From an uncultured delta proteobacterium (GTDB lineage Bacteria > Myxococcota > Myxococcia > Myxococcales > Anaeromyxobacteraceae): 64,000 bases of DNA. The stretch covers positions 480,001-544,000 of the forward strand of contig CAWFDF010000004.1 in assembly GCA_963814585.1 (NCBI GenBank), written 5' to 3'. Shown here one piece after another: positions 31,998 through 51,705 of the stretch. The notes under the pieces are model-generated. The model ran no database searches. It was not told the origin of the DNA and worked only from the letters and a program-made list of their open reading frames with translations. Position 1 is the stretch's first letter, and each line of letters starts with the position of its first letter. The position numbers were made by a program, and so were the translations under genes.

Positions 31998-34900
31998 CTA
32001 GAACGTCATCTCGAGCCCGAACCGGACCGACAGCGGGAGCTGGTAGGCCGTCGCCTTGGCGAAGTTCGGGTTGATGGTGGCCGCCAGGCCGTCGGTGGTC
32101 TTCATGTACTGCAGGGTCGGGCAGTCGGCGAGGGCGCCGGCGATGGGGTCGGACTTGCTGGCCGCGTTCCTGCTCGAGCACTGGCCGCCGATGATGGGCA
32201 GCGTGGAGTCATAGGTCCAGTTCTCGTCGACGGTGACCGCCTTCTGCTGGTTGAGGAGGTTGAAGATGTCCACCGTGAAGGCCACCTTGTAGGGCGGGGT
32301 GATGGTGTAGGAGATGCCACCCCTCAGGTCGAAGGCGGTCAGGGTGGGCGTGCGGCCCGCCGAGCCGCGGGGCAGGCCGTACCCCTCGCCCTCGCCGTAG
32401 TCGACGTGGGCGATCAGGTAGTTGACCGGCGTGCCGCTGGTGACGCGGAGGCCGGCGCCGGTGTTGACCTGGAGCTTGGGGCCGAAGTCCCAGGCGTAGG
32501 AGCCGTAGGCCTTGAAGGAGTGCGGCATGTCGCCCGGCAGCGGGCCATCGCTGTTGGCGAGCAGGCTGGCCAGGTCGTACGTCGAGTTGATGCCGGGGTC
32601 GAACTGGCCGGACTCGGGGCGGAAGTAGCCGGTGTAGTTGCCGCGCAGGCTGGAGTACGTGTAGGAGACCTGCGCCAGCCAGTTGTTCGAGAAGTTCTTC
32701 TTGGCCAGGATGGTGAAGCCGTCGTAGTCGCGCACCGGCTTCGGGAACGGGACCTGGAAGGTGCGGCCGGTGACCGCGTCGGTCGAGGTCGCCATGGTCG
32801 GGTCGAAGATGAAGCCGGTGCCGTCGTCGAACGGCTTGCCGGTGCCGGGGTTGGCGATGGCGGCGTGGACGAAGTCGTCCGGCGACATGTCCTCGATCAC
32901 CGGGCCCTGGCGGCGGCCCTGGTACTCGAACCCGAGGGAGAAGTCAGCCATGAGCTCGTACTCGAACGAGCCGCTGAACATGTCGACGTAGGGCGACTTG
33001 ATGTCCGGGGCGACCGGGACGATGCCAGGGGAGTACGGCGTGTAGGTATAGACTCCGTAGGTGTTGGACCGGTAGAAGCCGTCGGCCTGGGGGCAGTTCT
33101 CGGGAGCGCCGTTCAGCGCGTTCTTGTCCGTGCCGGGGAGGAGGGCATCGACCACCGCCTGGCACTCGGGACGGTAGGCGCGGATCTGGGTCTCTCCGCC
33201 GAAGGAGCGGTCGGACATGTCGAGCGGGAAGGAGGCGTAGAAGCGGCCGTAGCTGGCGGCCACCTTCGACCGGCCCTGCTTGGTGAAGTCGTAGATGGCC
33301 TGGAGGCGCGGGCCGACGCTATTGTTGATGGAGAAGCCGGTGCCCGGCTGGTCCGGGACGCTCATGTCCTGGCTCTCCCAGCGGACGCCGATGTTGAGGG
33401 TCAGGCCATCGACGAAGTTGGGCGACCAGCTGTCCTGCAGGTAGTAGCCGGCGATGTTCGACTGCGAGGAGACGGTGAGCCGCCCGCCCGGAGCGTCGAC
33501 GGCCGAGAGCCGGTCCGGAGCCACCAGGCCGTAGCGCCGGTAGTCCTGGAACCAGATCGGGTAGCCCGGATTGAAGGGGCCGGGGGCGACGACGGCGGGG
33601 TTGGTGCCGGCCGTACCCGCGGTCACGCGCCGCTCGAAGAGGTAGGCGCCGCCCGGCAGGTTGGCGTTGTTCGGGCCGGAATAGGCCTTGGAGTGGTCGT
33701 AGTTGGACTGCTGGATGTCGATGCCGCCCTTGATCTGGTGGTTGCCGGCCGCCTCGGCGAAGTAGGTGAGGGCCGCCTTGCCGGCGAACCGGCTGATGGT
33801 GGTCTCGTCGATGTAGCCCGAGCCGCCGGTGGCGTAGTTGGTCACGGTGCAGGGGTTGAAGCCGCCAGGACCCGGATCGCAGAGCGCATGCTGCCCGGCG
33901 TTCTCGAAGTCCTCCAGGCTGTGGGTCTGGGTCCAGATGACCGTGGAGGTCTTGCCGCCGTCGATGCCGTTTGTCGTGACCGGCCGGTTGGCCTGGTTCT
34001 GGCCGTGGTAGCCGCCGGTCAGCTCGAGCTGCAGCTTCTTGTCGAGGAACTTCGAGGTGTAGCGGGCCACCACGTCCATGAAGTCATCCTGCTGGTCGTA
34101 GGCCCCGGCCGAGCGGGCGGTGTTCGCGGTGCCATACCCCTGGGAGCCGACCCCGGTGGCGGTCTGCGGGACGTAGAAGACCGACAGGGCCACCTGGTTG
34201 TTCTCGTTGAAGAGGTAGGTGAGCTTGCCGACCACCTGGTACTGGGTGATCTTGTTGGTGTAGGTGCTCTCCGAGCCCGGGACCACGGTCCCGAGCGAGA
34301 AGCCGTCGGCGCCGGTGACCTTGGTGTCCACGAACGGGTCGGCGGTGGTCCCGGTGCCGGTCTGGTGTACTGGGTCGCCTGGGCGTAGCGGTCGTAGGTG
34401 TTGGCGGTGAGCCGCGGCGCAAAGCCGGCGAAGAACCAGAGCCGGTCCTTGAGGATGGGGCCGCCCACTTCGAAGCCGAAGTCGGCCTGGTAGGTGCTGC
34501 CGTCCACCACCAGCTTGCGGGCCAGCGCCGTGGCGCTGCGCTTGATGGCCTTGGCGTCGGCGCGCAGGGCGCCGGAGTTCAGGTTGCCGAACACCGACCC
34601 GTGGAACTCGTTGGAGCCGGACTTGGTGACCACCGACACGATGCCGCCGGTGGAGAAGCCGTACTCCGGCATGAAGGAGCCGGTCTTGATGTCGATCTCC
34701 TGGACGAAGTTGTTGAGGATGTCGCCGGAGAGGTTGCCGTAGCCGGCGTCGCCGATGTTCATGCCGTCGAGGAGGTAGCCGTTCTCCGGCGAGGAGGCGC
34801 CGGCGAAGGAGATGCCGTACTGGTCGACCTGCGCGGTCGGCGCCGTGACGGCCACGCCCTCGAAGCCGCGGGTGCCCGGGACGGTGGAGAGGAACTCGCG

Positions 34901-35326
34901 GGAGACCACGGTGCCCGACTCGGCCGAGCCGACGTTGATCACCGGGGCGATGCCGGTCCTGACGACCTGCTCCTCCATCTGGACCGCCTCCGGCACCATC
35001 GACAGGTTGGCGCGGATGGTCTTGTCGACGCGGACCGTCAGGTCGGAGCGCTCGGCCGGCTTGAAGCCGTCGAACGAGGTGGCGAGCTTGTAGTCGCCGG
35101 GAGGAAGGAGCTGGAAGCGGAAGCCACCGGACTTGTCGGTGACGGCCGTCTGCTCGCCCTGGGCCGCGGGGCTCGTCGCCACGACGAGCGCCCCGACCAC
35201 GGGCTTGCCTGACTGGGCGTCGGTGACGACGCCGATGATGTTACCGGTGGTCTGCGCGGAAGCGACGCTCGCGAACAGCAGTGCGAGGGGCGCGACCCGC
35301 AGGAGGCGCTGCAGCTTCATCCTCAT
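31998..35326 (-). CDS. Oar-like TonB-dependent outer-membrane transporter with a -1 frameshift at about 34364
   Basis: Signal peptide, carboxypeptidase-regulatory-like domain (GNIIGVVTD...VVATSPA), plug (ENGYLLDG, PEYGFSTGGIVSVVTKSGSNEFHGS), beta-barrel ending FGLEMTF. Adding one C at TAC ACC (C)AG ACC joins the two ORFs. Confidence 0.88.
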
Positions 35327-35801: not shown

Positions 35802-35870
35802 GCCCCGTCCAGCCGATTGGGGCGTCAACGATCCGGGCCGAGTCTCGGCTTCCAGACCAGCGAGCGACGC

Positions 35871-36594
35871 GTGTTCGAAGAAGTCACGAAGCGACAGAGC
35901 GGGAAGTACGCGGCCCGGCGGGCCGGCTGGGTCTTTGGCTCGACCGCCTTCCAGCTCGGGCTGGTCGCCGCGGCGCTCTTCGCCGGCCAGAGGATCAAGG
36001 CCGCCATCGAGGAGAAGCCCATCGACGTGAAGTTCGTGCGCGCCGCCGCCCCGCCCAAGCCGCCGCCGCCGCCGCCCGCGGCGCCGCCCAAGCGGAAGGA
36101 CACCGGCCCCAAGCCGCCGCCCCGGCCGGATGCGCCGCCGCCACCGCCGCCGCAGGCGCTGATCCAGCCCAAGGACGTGCAGGAGGAGATGAAGGTCGAC
36201 ACCTCGCCGAAGGAGCCCGAGTACAACTACGGGCCGCAGTCCGGCGAGGGGGTGGTCGGTGGCGTGGTGGGGGCGGACCAGGTCGAGGAGGCCCCGGCCT
36301 TCGCCACCAGCGGCTACGTCAAGCCCGCCGAGAGGGAGCGTGGCTGCGTCGGCCGCTCGGTCCGCATGCCCGCGCGACCTGCAGGGCATCGTCGCCAGCA
36401 TGACCATCAAGTTCGCCGTGGGCCGCGACGGGCGCCCCAGCCGCTTCGAGGTGCTCACCGACGTGCCCGACAAGCGGATCGCCGAGGCGGTCTGGCAGGC
36501 CGTGCAGGGCTGCCCGTTCCCGCCCGGCCTCGACTCCCGCGGCCAGCCCCAGCTGATCTGGATGATCCTGCCGATTCGCTTCACCAGCGGGTGA
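35871..36594 (+). CDS. tonB: TonB-family energy transducer with a +1 frameshift at about 36370
   Basis: VFEEV start, TM anchor, polyproline linker, GVVGGVVG. Removing one C gives the TonB-C-like MPRDLQG...IKFAVGRDG...AVQGCPFPPG...LPIRF. Confidence 0.8.
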
Positions 36595-36651
36595 CCGAAG
36601 CCTCCCCGCCCCCACGCTTTCCGCTGCTCTCCCCTTCCGGAGGTATCACCG

Positions 36652-37407
<756 letters not shown>

Positions 37408-40496: not shown

Positions 40497-40910
40497 TCAC
40501 CGCCTCGGTGATCTCGGCGACCTCCTGGTCTTCGGCGGGGTCCGGCGCGCCGGCCTCGCCGTCTCCCCCGCCTCCCTCGGAGCGGGCTCGAACCTCGGCC
40601 TCCTCGGGTGCTTGCGGTAGACGAGGATGGTCCGGCCCAGGACCTGCGCGACCTGCGCGCCGGGCCCGGCCGCCACCCGCGCCGCCGCCTCGAAGCGGTC
40701 CTCCGGGCTCTCCGACCCCACCTTCACCTTGACCAGCTCGTGGGCCAGCAGCGCCTCGTCGAGCTGCTGGAGCACCCCGGGCGTCACCCCGTCCTTGCCG
40801 ATCTGCACCACCGGCGAGAGGTGGTGGCCGGCGGCCCGCAGCGCCTTGCGGAGGCGGGAGGCCGGCATGAGGGACTGCTTCTTCGGGTTGCTGGAGGTGG
40901 GCACGGTCAC
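40497..40910 (-). CDS. yhbY: YhbY/CRS1 RNA-binding protein
   Basis: LRAAGHHLSPVVQIGKDGVT, LLAHELVKVKV, QVLGRTILVYR; GTGA overlap with the upstream stop. Confidence 0.88.
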   Translation of the reverse strand: MTVPTSSNPKKQSLMPASRLRKALRAAGHHLSPVVQIGKDGVTPGVLQQLDEALLAHELVKVKVGSESPEDRFEAAARVAAGPGAQVAQVLGRTILVYRKHPRRPRFEPAPREAGETARPARRTPPKTRRSPRSPRR

Positions 40911-42668
40911 TTCCTCAGGTACTTCAGCTCGCGCTGGAGATCGACGTGATCCGGCGACATCGCCAGGCCGCGCTTGAGGTGCCTCTCGGCGAGCGCGAGG
41001 TCGCCGATGATCTTGGCCATCTGGCCGAGGAACAGGTAGCCCGCCACGCAGCGCGGGCTCCTCTTCAGCCCCGCCTCGATGGCGCCGGCGGAACGGGGGT
41101 GGACCTTCCGCTTCTCCGGGGCGCCGACGAACTCGCACCAGGCCAGCCACATGCCGTACTCGGCCTCGTCCGGGTTGAGCCTCATGGCCTCGGTGAACTT
41201 GGCGGCGGCCTCCTCGTACTGGCGCGCCTTCACCAGCAGCGTGCCGTTCTGGAAGACCGTCTCGGCCTGGAGGATCCCCATGACGTCGACGGCGACACCG
41301 GCGCCGGTCCTGAGGTCATCGGCGTACTGGGCGCGCTTGGCGTCGTCGCCGAGGATCCCCAGGCCTCGCCGATGCGCGAGAACAGGTCGGCGCAGAGCTT
41401 CTTCACCGCGGGGGAGGCGTTCACCGCCACGGTGTCGGGGTGGTAGGCCTTGGCCAGCTGGAAGTAGGCGATCTTGATCTGGGCCGCGCTGGCGTCGGGG
41501 GCCACCCCCAGCACCTTGAAGTGATCGGCGTCGGCATAGCTGGCGAGCAGCGCCTGCAGCGAGGCCTCGTCGGCCACCGGGGCGGCCCGCGCCGGCGGCG
41601 CGGCGGCCGGCCGTGGCGCGGGCGGAGGCGTCCGGGGGGCCGCGGCGGGTGGACGCGGCGTGGCGGGTGTCGGCGCGGCGACAGGCGGCGCCGGCGCGGG
41701 CGGGGGCCCTGGTGGTGGCGCCGCGGCCACCGGGGGTGGCGGCCGTGCCGGGGCGCTGGGGACCGGGGCGGTGGCGGCGGGCACGGGCGGCTGCGGCGTC
41801 GGCGCGGCGGTCCTGACGCGCGGCGGTCCGAAGGACAGCAGCTCCACCTCCGCCAGCAGCAGCGCCACCCGGAGCACCATGGTGGCGTCGGCGCCGCGGA
41901 GTCGCGCCAGGTCGGAGAGCCGGGTCCCGTCGAAGGCGGCGGCGGCCCGGGCCTCGGCCGGGCCCAGCCGGAGGTCCTCCACCCTGACCCGCCCGGCGAT
42001 CTGGCTGGCGCCGAGCTGCTCCCTCGGTCCCAGCCGGCGCACCACCGCGGCGGCGTCGAAGGCGCGAACGGCCGCGCCCAGCATCACCCAGGGTGAACCC
42101 ATGGGGAAGGCGCTGGGTGGCGGCGCCACCCCGGGCTCCCAGCGCCAGCGCCCGGCCTCGACGCCCAGCGCCCGCGTCACCAGCTGCGCACCGTGCTCCT
42201 GGATCAGCCGGACCAGGTCGGCGCCGTTGACGAGCTTGCGGGTGACCAGCACCCCCACCAGGTCGCCGCCGGGGCCGGCGGCGGCCACGGCCTCGTCCAT
42301 CTGCTCGGGCCGGACCACGCCACGATGGACGAGGTACCCCGGCAGGCCGTCGTCCGGGCTGGAGGTGGTGACGTGCTCCAGCACCCCCTTGCGGAAGGTG
42401 AGCGAGTAGGCCGAGCCCTCCGGGGCCAGGGTGAGCCGCCCGGAGGCGCCGGTGGAGGCCGCCAGCGCGAAGAGCCGCAGCGTGCTCTCGGCGCCGAGGT
42501 CGCCCTCCATGGGAAGGCCGACGGCGAGGGCCGCGTCGGCGGTCACCCGGGGCGCCCCGAGGCCGCGGCTGGCCCCCGGCGCCACGGCCTGGCCCGGCGG
42601 CGGAGCCCGGTCCAGGCGCGGCGGCGAGGCCGGCGCGGGAGCCGGCCGGGGCTTGGGGGATCGGCCAC
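40907..42668 (-). CDS. DUF4388-like + J-domain + TPR protein, with -1 frameshifts at about 42657 and 41358
   Basis: EGDL...SGRLTL (DUF4388-like), Pro-rich linker, HFKVLGV...AYFQLAKAYHPD J-domain, C-terminal TPR-like helices. Both breaks are in C/G homopolymers. Confidence 0.78.
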
Positions 42669-42675
42669 GGAGGCG

Positions 42676-44343
42676 CTAGAGTACCACCGTCTCCCGGTAC
42701 TCGCCGAACACCTCCCGCAGCGCGTCGGAGACCTCGCCGAGCGTGGCGTCGGCCTTCACGGCGGCGAGGATGAGCGGCATGAGGTTGTCGGTCCCGCGAG
42801 CCCCGGCGCGCACCGCATCGACGGCCCGCCGGCAAGCGGCGGCGTCGCGGCGCGCCCGGAACGCCTTGAGCCGGGCCACCTGCTGCTCCTCGAGCGCCGG
42901 GTCGACCTTCATGACGGTGACCGGCGGGTCGTCCGCCTGGTAGGCGTTGACCCCCACCACCACCTGCTGCTTCTGCTCCACCTGCTTCTGCCAGGCGTAG
43001 GCGGCGTCCTGGATCTCGCGCTGCACGAAGCCCTTGGAGATGGCGTGGACCATGCCGCCCATCTCGTCGATCTTCCGGATGTAGGCCTCGGCGCGGGCCT
43101 CGATCTCGTCGGTCATGGCCTCGACCACGTAGCTGCCGCCGAAGGGATCGATGACGTCGGCCGCCCCCGACTCGTTGGCGATGATCTGCTGGGTGCGCAG
43201 CGCGATGCGGGCCGACGCCTCGGTGGGCAGGCCCAGCGCCTCGTCGCGCGAGTTGGTGTGCAGCGACTGCGTGCCGCCCAGCACCGCCGCCAGCGCCTGG
43301 ATGGTGACGCGGACGATGTTGTTGTCGGGCTGCTGCGCGGTGAGCATCGAGCCGGCGGTCTGGGTGTGGAAGCGGAGCATCCAGGAGCGCGGATCCCTGG
43401 CCTTGAAGCGCTCCTTCATGACGCGGGCCCAGAGCCGGCGGGCGGCCCGGTACTTGGCCACCTCCTCGAGCAGGTTGTTGTGGCCGTTGAAGAAGAAGGA
43501 GAGCCGGCCGGCGAAGGCGTCGACGTCGAGCCCGGCCTTGACCGCGGCGTCGACGTACTGGATGCCGTCGGCCAGCGTGAAGGCCACCTCCTGCACCGCC
43601 GTCGAGCCGGCCTCGCGGATGTGGTAGCCGGAGATGGAGATGGGGTTCCACTTCGGCATCACCCTGGCGGTGTAGGCGAAGATGTCGGTGATGAGCCGCA
43701 GCGACGGGACCGGCGGGTAGATGTAGGTGCCCCGGGCGGCGTACTCCTTGAGCAGGTCGTTCTGGATGGTCCCCTGCAGCTCGCCCGGAGGCACGCCCTG
43801 GCGCTCGCCGATGGCCTGGTACATCGAGAGCAGCACCGCGGCGGTGGAGTTGATGGTCATCGAGCTGGAGACGGTCCCGAGCGGGATGCCGTCGAGCAGC
43901 GTGGCCATGTCGTCGATGGAGTCGATGGCCACGCCGACCTTGCCCACCTCGCCCTGGGCGCGCGGGTGGTCCGAGTCGCGCCCCATCTGCGTGGGCAGGT
44001 CGAAGGCCACCGAGAGGCCGGTCTGGCCCGACTTGAGCAGGTACTTGTACCGCTCGTTCGACTCGGCGGCGGTGCCGAAGCCGGCGTACTGGCGCATGGT
44101 CCAGAAGCGGGCCCGGTACATGGTCGGCTGCACGCCGCGGGTGAAGGGGTACTCGCCGGGGAGGCCGAGCCGCGCCTCCAGGCCGGGCTTCACGTCGGCG
44201 GCCACGTAGACCGGCTGCTGCGGGATCCCGCTGCTGGTCTCGAAGCTGGGGCGCCGCTCCGGCGACCTGGCCACCGCCTTCCCGTACGGCCCCTTGAGCC
44301 AGCGCTCCTTCTCGATGCGGCCCTGCTCGCGATCGTCACCCAT
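42676..44343 (-). CDS. Methylmalonyl-CoA mutase, substrate-binding (large) subunit without a B12-binding domain
   Basis: [61 protein letters not shown]; ends [16 protein letters not shown]. Tyr in RQYAG and Arg in YAARG indicate MCM rather than isobutyryl-CoA mutase. Confidence 0.92.
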
Positions 44344-44363
44344 GGCGTCCTCGGTCCTCCGTG

Positions 44364-44887
44364 TCAGGGTTTCCTGGCCTGCTCGACGGCCAGCAGCGTC
44401 GCGCCGCTCGCCACGTCCTGTCCCGCCTCGACCCGCAGCTCGGTCACCGTCCCGTCGCCCGGGCTGCACAGCTGGTTCTCCATCCGCAGCGCCTCCAGCA
44501 CCAGCAGCGGCTGCCCCCGAGTCACCGGGTCGCCCAGCTTCACCAGCACCTTCAGCACCCGCCCCGGCAGCGGCGCGGCCAGCGGCTGCCGTCCCTCGAC
44601 GGTGAGCGTCCCCAGGGCCCGCCGCATCCGCAGCCGCCGCTCGGGGAGGATCTCCATGGGGAAGACGGCGCCCCGCACCCGGACCCGGACCTGGGCGCCC
44701 CGCTCGTCGAAGGTGACGTCGTGGCTGGCGGTGTCGACGAGGAGCGAGAGGCTGCCGGCGTCGGGGCGGAAGGCGTCGACGTCGAGCTGGCGGCCGCCGA
44801 TCCGCACCCGGTAGCGGCCGGGGCCGGCCTCCTCGACGTCGATCTCCACCTCGCGCTTGCCGGCGTCGAGGAGCGCCACGTAGCGGC

Positions 44888-44891
<4 letters not shown>
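44364..44891 (-). CDS. Biotin carboxyl carrier-like subunit (BT-like + biotinyl domain) lacking the biotin-accepting Lys
   Basis: [36 protein letters not shown]...[19 protein letters not shown] is replaced by EALRM; ATGA overlap with the biotin carboxylase stop. Confidence 0.85.
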
Positions 44892-46425
<1,534 letters not shown>

Positions 46426-46577
46426 GTGGGGACACCCCGGTGGCAGGGCTGCTGCGAAGAGCGTGTGCGTCGGGGTGGGGACGATACCCGCGCAGGCGCG
46501 GGGCCGTCCAGCGATCACGCGGCCGGGGGATTTGCTACCCTGCGTGGTCGGCCCTGTGGGGCCCGGAGGCGGACCGC

Positions 46578-47132
46578 ATGTGGTTCCTGCTGCTGGTGAT
46601 CGGCGCGGTGGTGGTGCAGCTGGCCGGGGTGCCCGCCAGCCGCCGGCTGCCGGTCCCGCCCCCACCCGAGGCCCTGCTGATCGCCTGGTTCCTCTTCGCC
46701 GCCGCGGTTCGCCTGGCGGTGATGCGGCTCCGCCTGGCCTCCTTCGAGCGCAAGGCCAAGCGGCTGGCGCGCCGCACCAGCGACCCGGCCGTCTCGCCGA
46801 TGGGCGAGCTCGGGCTCGGGGTGGGGCGGGGGGCGCTCCTGGCCGTGGGCGGCGACGTGCTCGGGGCCTCGCTGTCGCTGGTGGCGGCGCTGCTGCGCGG
46901 CACCGCCGGCTCGCTCCGGACCCCGCCCACGCCGCAGCGGGAGCGCCGGCGGGCCTCCCGCAGGGAGCGGCTGAACGCGGCCACCTGCGTGCTGGGGGTC
47001 GGGCTCGCCTGCGTCGGCCTGGCCTGGTGGCCGCTGGTCGGCGGCCAGGCCTCCCGGGCCGCCGTCCCGGCGCTGCGCGCGGTCGGCCTGGTGCCCGAGG
47101 CGCCCACCATCGGGCCCCCACCGGCCCGCTGA
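46578..47132 (+). CDS. Hypothetical membrane protein
   Basis: [17 protein letters not shown]..., several hydrophobic segments. Confidence 0.6.

Positions 47133-50142: not shown

Positions 50143-51705
<1,563 letters not shown>

Follow-up and report, generated by a model that had tools for sequence, protein, structure and literature searches.

The 64,000-nucleotide stretch of DNA from an uncultured deltaproteobacterium analysed here (contig CAWFDF010000004.1, positions 480,001 to 544,000; hereafter the window) encodes a carrier subunit of propionyl-CoA carboxylase (PCC) type in which EALRM takes the place of EAMKM, the motif around the biotin-accepting lysine. To our knowledge, the MKM lysine is treated as invariant. 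The locus raises the question of how such a gene persists, and what has become of the enzyme to which its product belonged. The protein lacks the acceptor lysine of a functional biotin carboxyl carrier, and biotin ligase chemistry, as described in PMC4016012, requires the lysine amine.

The codons GAG GCG CTG CGG ATG, reported in a preliminary description at 44495-44481, were read in the window and recur unchanged in a related-strain contig (run X4) covering 44330-44917, which shows 11 letter differences, none of them within 44481-44495 (runs X1-X4 stem from one study and a related strain, ~98 % alike). Thus, ATG AAG, which that description had considered as a possible outcome of a check in reads, did not appear. 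AAG occupies the acceptor codon in 28/28 Lys-keeping family orthologs (codon comparison), in agreement with the three substitutions then counted from ATG AAG to CTG CGG. The accompanying change of APMPG to APLPG is likewise present in the 175-aa translation, and Met108 of this motif is altered in 11/11 Lys-less orthologs of the first sample. The gene is intact as described (ORF 44891-44364, minus strand), its start overlaps the stop of the biotin carboxylase (BC) gene as ATGA, and BC indeed ends before any biotinyl domain of its own. Single-base indels had been mentioned for other parts of the window; of two extra bases in the BC gene, the one at 46068 is absent from the X1 and X3 contigs and the one at 46110 from those of X1, X3 and X4. 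Since related-strain contigs lack these bases, the frame break in BC is likely an assembly error. Such nearby errors in the assembly are also what would favour a sequencing error or private mutation at the motif, an explanation of negligible probability in view of the identical codons in an independent contig and of 57/64 homologs without the lysine. EALRM is genuine and represents neither sequencing error nor private decay. Promoter and terminator scans found none.

Table 1 Features of the carrier locus, of PccB and of the second carboxylase (positions in the window unless a contig is named)
Feature	Position	Strand	Remarks
Methylmalonyl-CoA mutase, N-terminal subunit	42676..44343	-	Directly downstream of the carrier gene; TIGR00641 803 bits, cut-off 303.8
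Lys-less BT-plus-carrier subunit, 175 aa	44364..44891	-	ORF translation; split-off C-terminal part of PCC alpha chain
Biotinyl-fold domain without acceptor lysine, residues 101-171	44379..44591	-	AlphaFold2 model, Pfam
EALRM replacing EAMKM	44481..44495	-	Codons GAG GCG CTG CGG ATG; residue 136, predicted hairpin tip
APLPG replacing APMPG	44562..44576	-	Translation; ortholog comparison
BT barrel half, residues 1-98	44598..44891	-	Eight predicted strands plus short helix; central helix not part of this half
BC with intact catalytic motifs	44888..46425	-	omega 0.12; extra bases 46068, 46110
BC C-terminal tail, putative BT central helix plus hook	44891..45055	-	Conserved tail; deleted with carrier gene in G015
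PccB-type carboxyltransferase, altered active site	50143..51705	-	Only PccB found in genome
PccB G437P	50395..50397	-	Gly in 28/28 Lys-keepers; changed in 39/40 non-Lys genomes
PccB I420L	50446..50448	-	Changed in 17/17 lineage groups, 16 to Leu
PccB D413A	50467..50469	-	Asp422 of Streptomyces coelicolor PccB, acyl-chain specificity residue
PccB T199N	51109..51111	-	YMFITGP motif; changed in 15/17 lineage groups
PccB G176S	51178..51180	-	Gly183 of S. coelicolor PccB, Gly203 human; first oxyanion hole
Second carboxylase, two genes: carboxyltransferase and 988-codon BC-carrier fusion (EVMKMF)	G000:C8:578202-582924 (L182)		Contig C8, same genome

The lysine is absent from 57 of 64 homologs (R31, Q10, G7, H5, E2, N1, D1; K7), with seven different amino acids at the hairpin-tip residue of the Lys-less relatives. 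In the family survey, comprising 66 genomes of at least 85 % completeness, the lysine is kept in 28 and replaced in 23 (by G, R, Q, H, N, E or D); no carrier domain was found in 15, among them G073 (BT half only), G076 (contig end) and G016 (whole cluster not found). The conservation across the clade considered in the preliminary description thus applies to the loss as such and not to arginine, since seven different non-Lys residues occur. Its other possibility, an LRM private to this genome and evolving neutrally, is at odds with these counts and with an omega of ~0.2-0.25. The surveyed family is likely Anaeromyxobacteraceae, because the closest named carrier records (54-58 % identity) are labelled Anaeromyxobacter or Anaeromyxobacteraceae, whereas other Myxococcota reach 50 % at most. 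Database labels, where these proteins are named at all, call them biotin carriers. In other families, EAMKM is kept in 14/14 full-length orthologs and the lysine at 79/80 genome loci, the one exception being Glu; among the top 150 cluster representatives the Lys motif was found in 140 by pattern and in 2 more by eye, 3 having no Lys and 5 no such domain.

Mapped on a phylogeny of the neighbouring mutase (57 rows), the trait switches 8 times; a careful tree of 33 rows requires 7 changes. A single origin of the non-Lys state, with the non-Lys rows held together, was rejected (p-AU 1e-6, mutase tree), and well-supported mixed groups are formed by G073 with G018, by G045 with G050 and by G068 within a Lys-keeping clade. 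Judged from these phylogenies, loss of the lysine or of the whole gene took place separately in several lineages. The preliminary description mentioned neither this family-wide, recurrent loss nor the pccB gene 5 kb upstream that changes along with the carrier. No report of such a system was found in the open-access literature, a scope outside of which most subscription papers lie.

The carrier protein retains its fold. It matches Pfam PF00364 with 51.1 bits (cut-off 22.1), and an AlphaFold2 model based on 149 sequences reaches a pLDDT of 91.8 overall and of 95-98 across the biotinyl domain; it supersedes an earlier model from 13 sequences (pLDDT 61) in which the BT half was unresolved. The top Foldseek matches are BT-BCCP parts of PCC alpha (172-175 columns, E about 1e-11). 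For the biotinyl half, omega is 0.20-0.25 in the Lys-less set versus 0.08 in Lys-keepers plus outgroups (2dlnL 40-85 against omega 1), and for the BT half 0.25 versus 0.16; these values stem from a fixed-omega grid, as a free fit gave 1.000 on the short alignments, Lys-keepers included, and Nei-Gojobori dN/dS, inflated by saturated third-position GC, was used for ranks only. With all omegas far below 1, the carrier gene is under purifying selection, and the simple decay offered as one explanation at the outset finds no support.

The two halves have separate fates in some relatives. G073, a single-contig genome, encodes the BT half alone as a 97-aa protein (L353; G073:C1:2935180-2935455), while its sister G018 retains a full Lys carrier. 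In G015, the BC tail and the whole carrier gene are deleted together, with BC itself intact. The biotinyl half is kept in 23/24 genomes retaining BT; this retention and the constraint on this half exceed the needs of an idle appendage. The BT domain of PCC is described as a helix followed by strands in a helix-in-barrel design (PMC3199775, PMC13012033), and as a hub joining BC, carrier and carboxyltransferase (CT) (bioRxiv 2024.04.30.591959). In the present proteins, we infer a division of this domain, with the BC tail contributing the helix and the Lys-less subunit the strands. The BT-only version of G073 and the joint deletion in G015 fit a structural partner with a dispensable carrier half. 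The structural pseudo-carrier suggested in the preliminary description thereby appears supported by the BT fold, by purifying selection and by G073.

Loss of the lysine would be tolerable if another enzyme carboxylates propionyl-CoA. A second carboxylase is encoded on contig C8 of the same genome (Table 1), and EVMKMF is present in 24/24 second-carboxylase sequences read. It occurs in 56/66 family genomes, namely in 38/38 non-Lys and in 18/28 Lys-keeping ones, and the 10 genomes without it all keep the lysine. Its presence in every family genome, true of the first 24, was abandoned with the full survey; likewise, its position beside pccB was discarded as a Lys-less-specific trait, being also found in the Lys-keepers G042, G043, G052, G057 and G064. 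In a phylum-wide sample of 355 genomes, the second carboxylase was found in only 12 outside the family, and 5/5 of those tested had no PccB match. A distant family (f17) harbours it in 11/17 genomes at 53-61 % identity, the four tested again without PccB match. A methylmalonyl-CoA mutase lies near the second carboxylase at 21/30 metagenome loci with at most 62 % GC and at 1/45 loci above. From these associations, the second carboxylase is inferred to be a PCC. It is homologous, as we assume, to GSU3299-GSU3300 of Geobacter and likely of the same kind. The latter (GSU3299-GSU3300/Gmet_3248-3249) is a two-gene biotin-dependent carboxylase, listed with epimerase and mutase genes and believed, on inferred activity, to convert propionyl-CoA to methylmalonyl-CoA (bioRxiv 2026.02.11.701306). 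PDB matches of the second carboxylase are partial only (best 3e-31 over about one third of its length), leaving a widespread, likely PCC without a close solved structure.

Both carboxylases are intact in 18 genomes; redundancy is therefore incomplete. Among the 10 genomes lacking the second carboxylase, 8 carry a further CT, and all 8 genomes with that CT lack the second enzyme; these eight therefore do not rely on the old PCC alone. This further CT adjoins a 5S-like gene in 5/5 cases checked, as in transcarboxylase clusters. At these loci (L486-L490, in G053, G061, G055, G048 and G054), the 5S-like gene stands beside a 12S-like CT, and a two-subunit mutase is present in 4/5. A different arrangement is seen in G016, which alone yielded no pccB: an MmdA-like CT, an MKM carrier and a gene resembling a membrane beta subunit lie near the second carboxylase (L198:6544-10172).

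The search for other MKM carriers and birA, proposed in the preliminary description, was successful in this genome (91.7 % complete), which encodes AccB, pyruvate carboxylase and a 70-residue stand-alone carrier (all MKM), furthermore BirA, BioB, AccA, AccD and an epimerase, with AccB/AccC away from the present locus. Which CT the small carrier serves is indicated by its distribution. Contig C8 also harbours a leucine cluster, where a CT adjoins genes that we take, by sequence resemblance, to encode HMG-CoA lyase, enoyl-CoA hydratase and acyl-CoA dehydrogenase. The 70-residue carrier and this leucine CT occur together in 14 family genomes and are both absent from 10, so that their presence matches in 24/24. 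In 13/14 genomes of other families the small carrier has a BC gene at most 3 kb away, as opposed to 0/14 family loci. Replacement of the Lys-less carrier by the small carrier in the service of PccB was an early idea, dropped because the small carrier tracks the leucine CT.

Retention of BC follows the same pattern. The window-type BC is intact in 22/25 non-Lys genomes with leucine CT. Of the 15 without leucine CT, 2 retain it intact, G011 and G058 have a degenerate copy, and the remaining 11 yielded none; G008 was omitted from this count, as its contig breaks at the locus. In G012, a clean deletion left a 36-codon remnant. Exceptions are G010 and G022 (BC gone at its locus, leucine CT present), G016 (leucine CT without such a BC, possibly an assembly gap), and G074 and G078 (intact BC without leucine CT). 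As these five genomes show, BC and leucine CT do not always go together, and AccC could take over this role. On the strength of this co-retention, BC likely now serves methylcrotonyl-CoA carboxylase via the separate 70-residue carrier. Accordingly, the notion of a carrier encoded elsewhere seems to hold for BC, probably with methylcrotonyl-CoA as substrate and the 70-aa protein as carrier, and does not seem to hold for propionyl-CoA. Two exchanges in BC (Q for H in QRRQQK, L for M in YDPLL) were rejected as markers, since they also occur in Lys-keepers. Divergent from the BC gene, a 230-codon ORF without Pfam match is located at 46440-47132 (plus strand), with a similar ORF in G001 (L187:6426-6968). 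In G016, one more BC is accompanied by a small carrier of its own (EVMKMF; L296:5331-7016 on G016:C16), in a cluster that to our eyes resembles urea-amidolyase or oxoprolinase genes.

The PccB encoded upstream of the carrier is a single 520-aa chain sharing ~66-75 % identity with ordinary PccB orthologs (PF01039, 602 bits; best PDB match 3N6R chain B, 4e-198). The canonical first oxyanion hole and the equivalent of Asp422 are nevertheless disrupted (Gly175 kept, G176S, D413A), while the biotin-side oxyanion hole Gly410-Ala411 is retained in this genome (equivalences taken from oxyanion-hole assignments and an alignment with human PCC beta, offset 27; residue 410 is Gly419 of S. coelicolor). 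At least four of nine marker sites (176, 180, 195, 199, 341, 410, 413, 420 and 437, chosen on the first sample) are changed in 39/40 non-Lys genomes (37 from the survey of 66, with G004, G008 and G010 in addition) versus 0/28 Lys-keeping ones, G045 having 1/9. No significance is attached to such co-occurrence counts, because kin are not independent and the starred branches hold just 3 independent pairs, a number that does not suffice for a sign test. For a cross-check, a set of 28 sites was taken from genera g1 and g10 only. Between five further Lys-less genomes and Lys-keepers (six pairings), 11-21/28 of these sites differ, compared to 0-3 in six keeper-keeper pairs and 3/27 in PccB of G045; other invariant sites differ at 1-8 %.

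Gly437 is changed in 17/17 lineage groups. Ile420 became Leu in 18/19 sampled genomes, whereas other conserved isoleucines changed to Val in 52 and to Leu in 21 of 103 cases; the near-uniform I420L looks directional. Gly176 is changed in 16/40 and Gly410 in 18/40 non-Lys genomes (Val or Ala; Val in 16/40), both together in 0/40. This mutual exclusion is suggestive only (chance about 0.02 if lineages are independent); in AccD5, the glycines matching Gly176 and Gly410 are reported to form a constriction (bioRxiv 2026.02.06.704326). Conserved parts remain. Ala137, Gly175, the CoA-binding motifs and DVPG are kept in 40/40 non-Lys genomes, and 177/337 keeper-invariant sites are unchanged across all 17 lineage groups; the leucine CT, as control, keeps 218/235 invariant sites unchanged. 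PccB was found in 65/66 family genomes, the absence from G016 being left uncounted, as BC, carrier and mutase are missing there as well and an assembly gap would explain it. Omega ranges from 0.09 to 0.11 and amounts to 0.11 in 10 genomes without BC and carrier, with 0/13 showing a stop or break. PccB is even kept in G012, G014, G021, G023 and G024, where BC, Lys-less subunit and small carrier were not found, and in sister genomes both devoid of BC its residues differ by 7-13 % versus 27-37 % at fourfold sites. Since PccB is conserved without BC and carrier, its job needs neither.

Several of these changes also occur in biotin-dependent CTs: Ser437 in AccA of this genome, Leu420 in human and Roseobacter-type PccB, and Ala at the 176 equivalent in AccD4 (bioRxiv 2026.02.06.704326); a change of the D413A type is described to widen the acyl pocket (PMC5187497). 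Models of the decarboxylase subunits MdcD and MdcE score PccB below cut-off (57 vs 228 bits and 37 vs 237 bits). A sodium-pumping methylmalonyl-CoA decarboxylase (MmdA) was rejected, as TIGR01117 scores 741 against a cut-off of 998.8 and the membrane beta subunit (PF03977) was not found in the 91.7 % complete genome. In PccB of G056 (L384), the second oxyanion motif reads YGAGY, i.e., the Ala-Gly order of methylcrotonyl-CoA carboxylase.

The explanation preferred here (probability about 0.6) is that the protein is an old PCC carrier without its biotin lysine, likely surviving for structural reasons, in a PCC that was repeatedly retired and its parts likely redeployed. The lysine would have become dispensable because the second carboxylase likely took over propionyl-CoA carboxylation, replacing the old PCC. 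The N-terminal half of the Lys-less protein would complete the BT domain around the helix of the BC tail, and its biotinyl half may be a slowly relaxing appendage. BC may be kept to load CO2 onto the 70-residue carrier for the methylcrotonyl-CoA carboxylase of leucine degradation, for which the family appears to have no dedicated BC. Altered PccB may perform a biotin-free job on a CoA ester. The idea of a repurposed PCC, raised in the preliminary description, thus gains from the second carboxylase in every non-Lys genome and from the coupled changes in PccB.

For the role of PccB, decarboxylation of methylmalonyl-CoA or ethylmalonyl-CoA is tentatively ranked first, because of the precedent of MdcD-MdcE, the retention of Ala137 and Gly175, the nearby mutase and the directional I420L. 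Non-catalytic acyl-CoA binding, a somewhat doubtful second choice, is suggested by the varied residues at most of the other sites. Carboxyl transfer with a borrowed carrier, ranked third and unlikely, would imply a biotin-dependent CT of new specificity, for which D413A and the occurrence of Ser437, Ala176 and Leu420 in working CTs could be adduced; Val410 fits poorly. Slow decay comes last, with still lower probability. One may speculate, with considerable doubt, that PCC was dismantled at least 7 times alike, the carrier becoming BADC-like, BC passing to leucine degradation and PccB turning, through a few convergent substitutions, into a biotin-independent methylmalonyl-CoA decarboxylase that, together with the mutase, would convert succinyl-CoA to propionyl-CoA.

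Alternatively, the old PCC might still be active, with the Lys-less subunit gluing BC to PccB and biotin supplied by another carrier, e.g., the 70-aa carrier, AccB or the biotinyl domain of the second carboxylase, and with a perhaps changed acyl preference of PccB. The conserved catalytic motifs and tail of BC, the CoA-binding and other elements kept in PccB of all 40 non-Lys genomes, the match of D413A to a pocket-widening change (PMC5187497), the sharing of BC modules by mycobacterial CT cores (bioRxiv 2026.02.06.704326) and the presence of BirA and BioB would agree with this. A carrier swap alone, however, needs no change of the catalytic pocket in every lineage, nor does it readily account for Val at the biotin-side oxyanion glycine in 16/40 non-Lys genomes, for a small carrier tracking the leucine CT rather than PccB, or for the conservation of PccB in the five genomes where BC, subunit and small carrier were not found, so that continued PCC activity is quite improbable. 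Ranking below it is a BADC-like regulator, in which the Lys-less domain would tune flux, either as a decoy at the BC or CT site or by capping a BC-carrier complex. The plant precedent (PMC11926652), the constraint on the biotinyl half (omega 0.20-0.25, 2dlnL 40-85) and its retention in 23/24 BT-keeping genomes are in line with such a function; yet constraint dropped about threefold after lysine loss and now equals that on the BT half, any of seven amino acids can occupy the tip, and the domain was cleanly deleted in G073 and the whole gene in G015, with BC intact.

A slow decay of the entire old PCC, its conservation reflecting only counter-selection of misfolded protein and the little time since replacement, would be illustrated by a graded series from G045 (1/9 sites) through G058 and G011 (degenerate BC) and the remnant of G012 to full deletions. 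Many PccB changes point toward GC-rich codons, and outside the family the old PCC was not found where the second carboxylase is present. For BC and carrier after loss of the leucine CT, such decay is an apt description. It is very unlikely as a general explanation, given the near-ubiquity of PccB (65/66), its omega of 0.09-0.11, the 177/337 unchanged sites, the low residue divergence relative to fourfold sites in sisters without BC, and Ile420 turning to Leu where other conserved isoleucines mostly turn to Val.

Compared with known systems, the retired and redeployed PCC favoured above resembles the PCC alpha6beta6 complexes (PDB 3N6R, 6YBP, human 7YBU) in fold, domain order and mutase cluster, with PCC in Myxococcota being the split form BC/BT-carrier/PccB; it differs in the missing acceptor lysine and in the alterations of PccB (Gly176, Thr199, Asp413, Gly437 and others). 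The Lys-less subunit is most like plant BADC, without being a member, as far as the comparison of features goes. BADC1-3 are described as carrier-derived non-catalytic subunits of the plastid heteromeric acetyl-CoA carboxylase that lack the biotinylation motif, acting as inhibitors or assembly glue, and are called unique to the plant enzyme (PMC11926652). Common to both is a carrier-like fold without biotinylation motif. Unlike BADC, the present subunit is bacterial, has separate repeated origins, and derives from the C-terminus of PCC alpha together with the BT barrel; rather than being an additional copy next to a functional carrier, it is itself the original one. Its partner CT changes along with it, and its gene overlaps that of a PCC-type BC.

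For the proposed role of PccB, a precedent is provided by MdcD-MdcE, described as a biotin-independent malonyl-thioester decarboxylase of CT fold that uses the thioester oxyanion hole (PMC5534430); PccB differs in being a single chain and in scoring far below the MdcD/MdcE cut-offs. The small carrier of the family resembles BLAP (YngHB) of Bacillus subtilis, a stand-alone carrier of ~70 residues tied to leucine degradation and neighbouring a putative methylcrotonyl-CoA carboxylase (PMC4016012), in its length and in tracking the leucine-cluster CT. It differs in having no adjacent BC, likely borrowing that of the old PCC, and scores 63 bits against NF006079 (cut-off 95). In mycobacteria, AccA3 is described as one BC module serving several CTs (bioRxiv 2026.02.06.704326), and AccE5 as a non-catalytic BC tether that places a helix in the beta barrel (PMC13012033). 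Unlike AccE, which supplies the helix and has no carrier fold, the Lys-less subunit supplies the barrel.

Repeated loss of the lysine under purifying selection represents a bacterial parallel to plant BADC, and the family could help to decide between glue and inhibitor as roles of non-biotinylated carrier subunits. Uniting intact carriers, an early stage (G045), a BT-only form (G073) and deletions, it amounts to a natural replicated experiment. The nine PccB positions appear constrained only while biotin chemistry runs, which may be useful for studies of carboxylase mechanism and for engineering. If altered PccB were indeed a biotin-free decarboxylase, the route from a CT to an MdcD/E-like enzyme could be rebuilt stepwise. 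With respect to metabolic annotation, a working canonical PCC would be missing from 38/66 family genomes.

Three further genes in the window are split across frames (31998-35326, 35817-36683 and 40907-42585), by resemblance a TonB-dependent-receptor-like gene, a TonB-like gene and the gene after the mutase; likely, single-base assembly errors are responsible. The same probably applies to the pyruvate carboxylase gene (C8:614817-618948), which is also split across frames.
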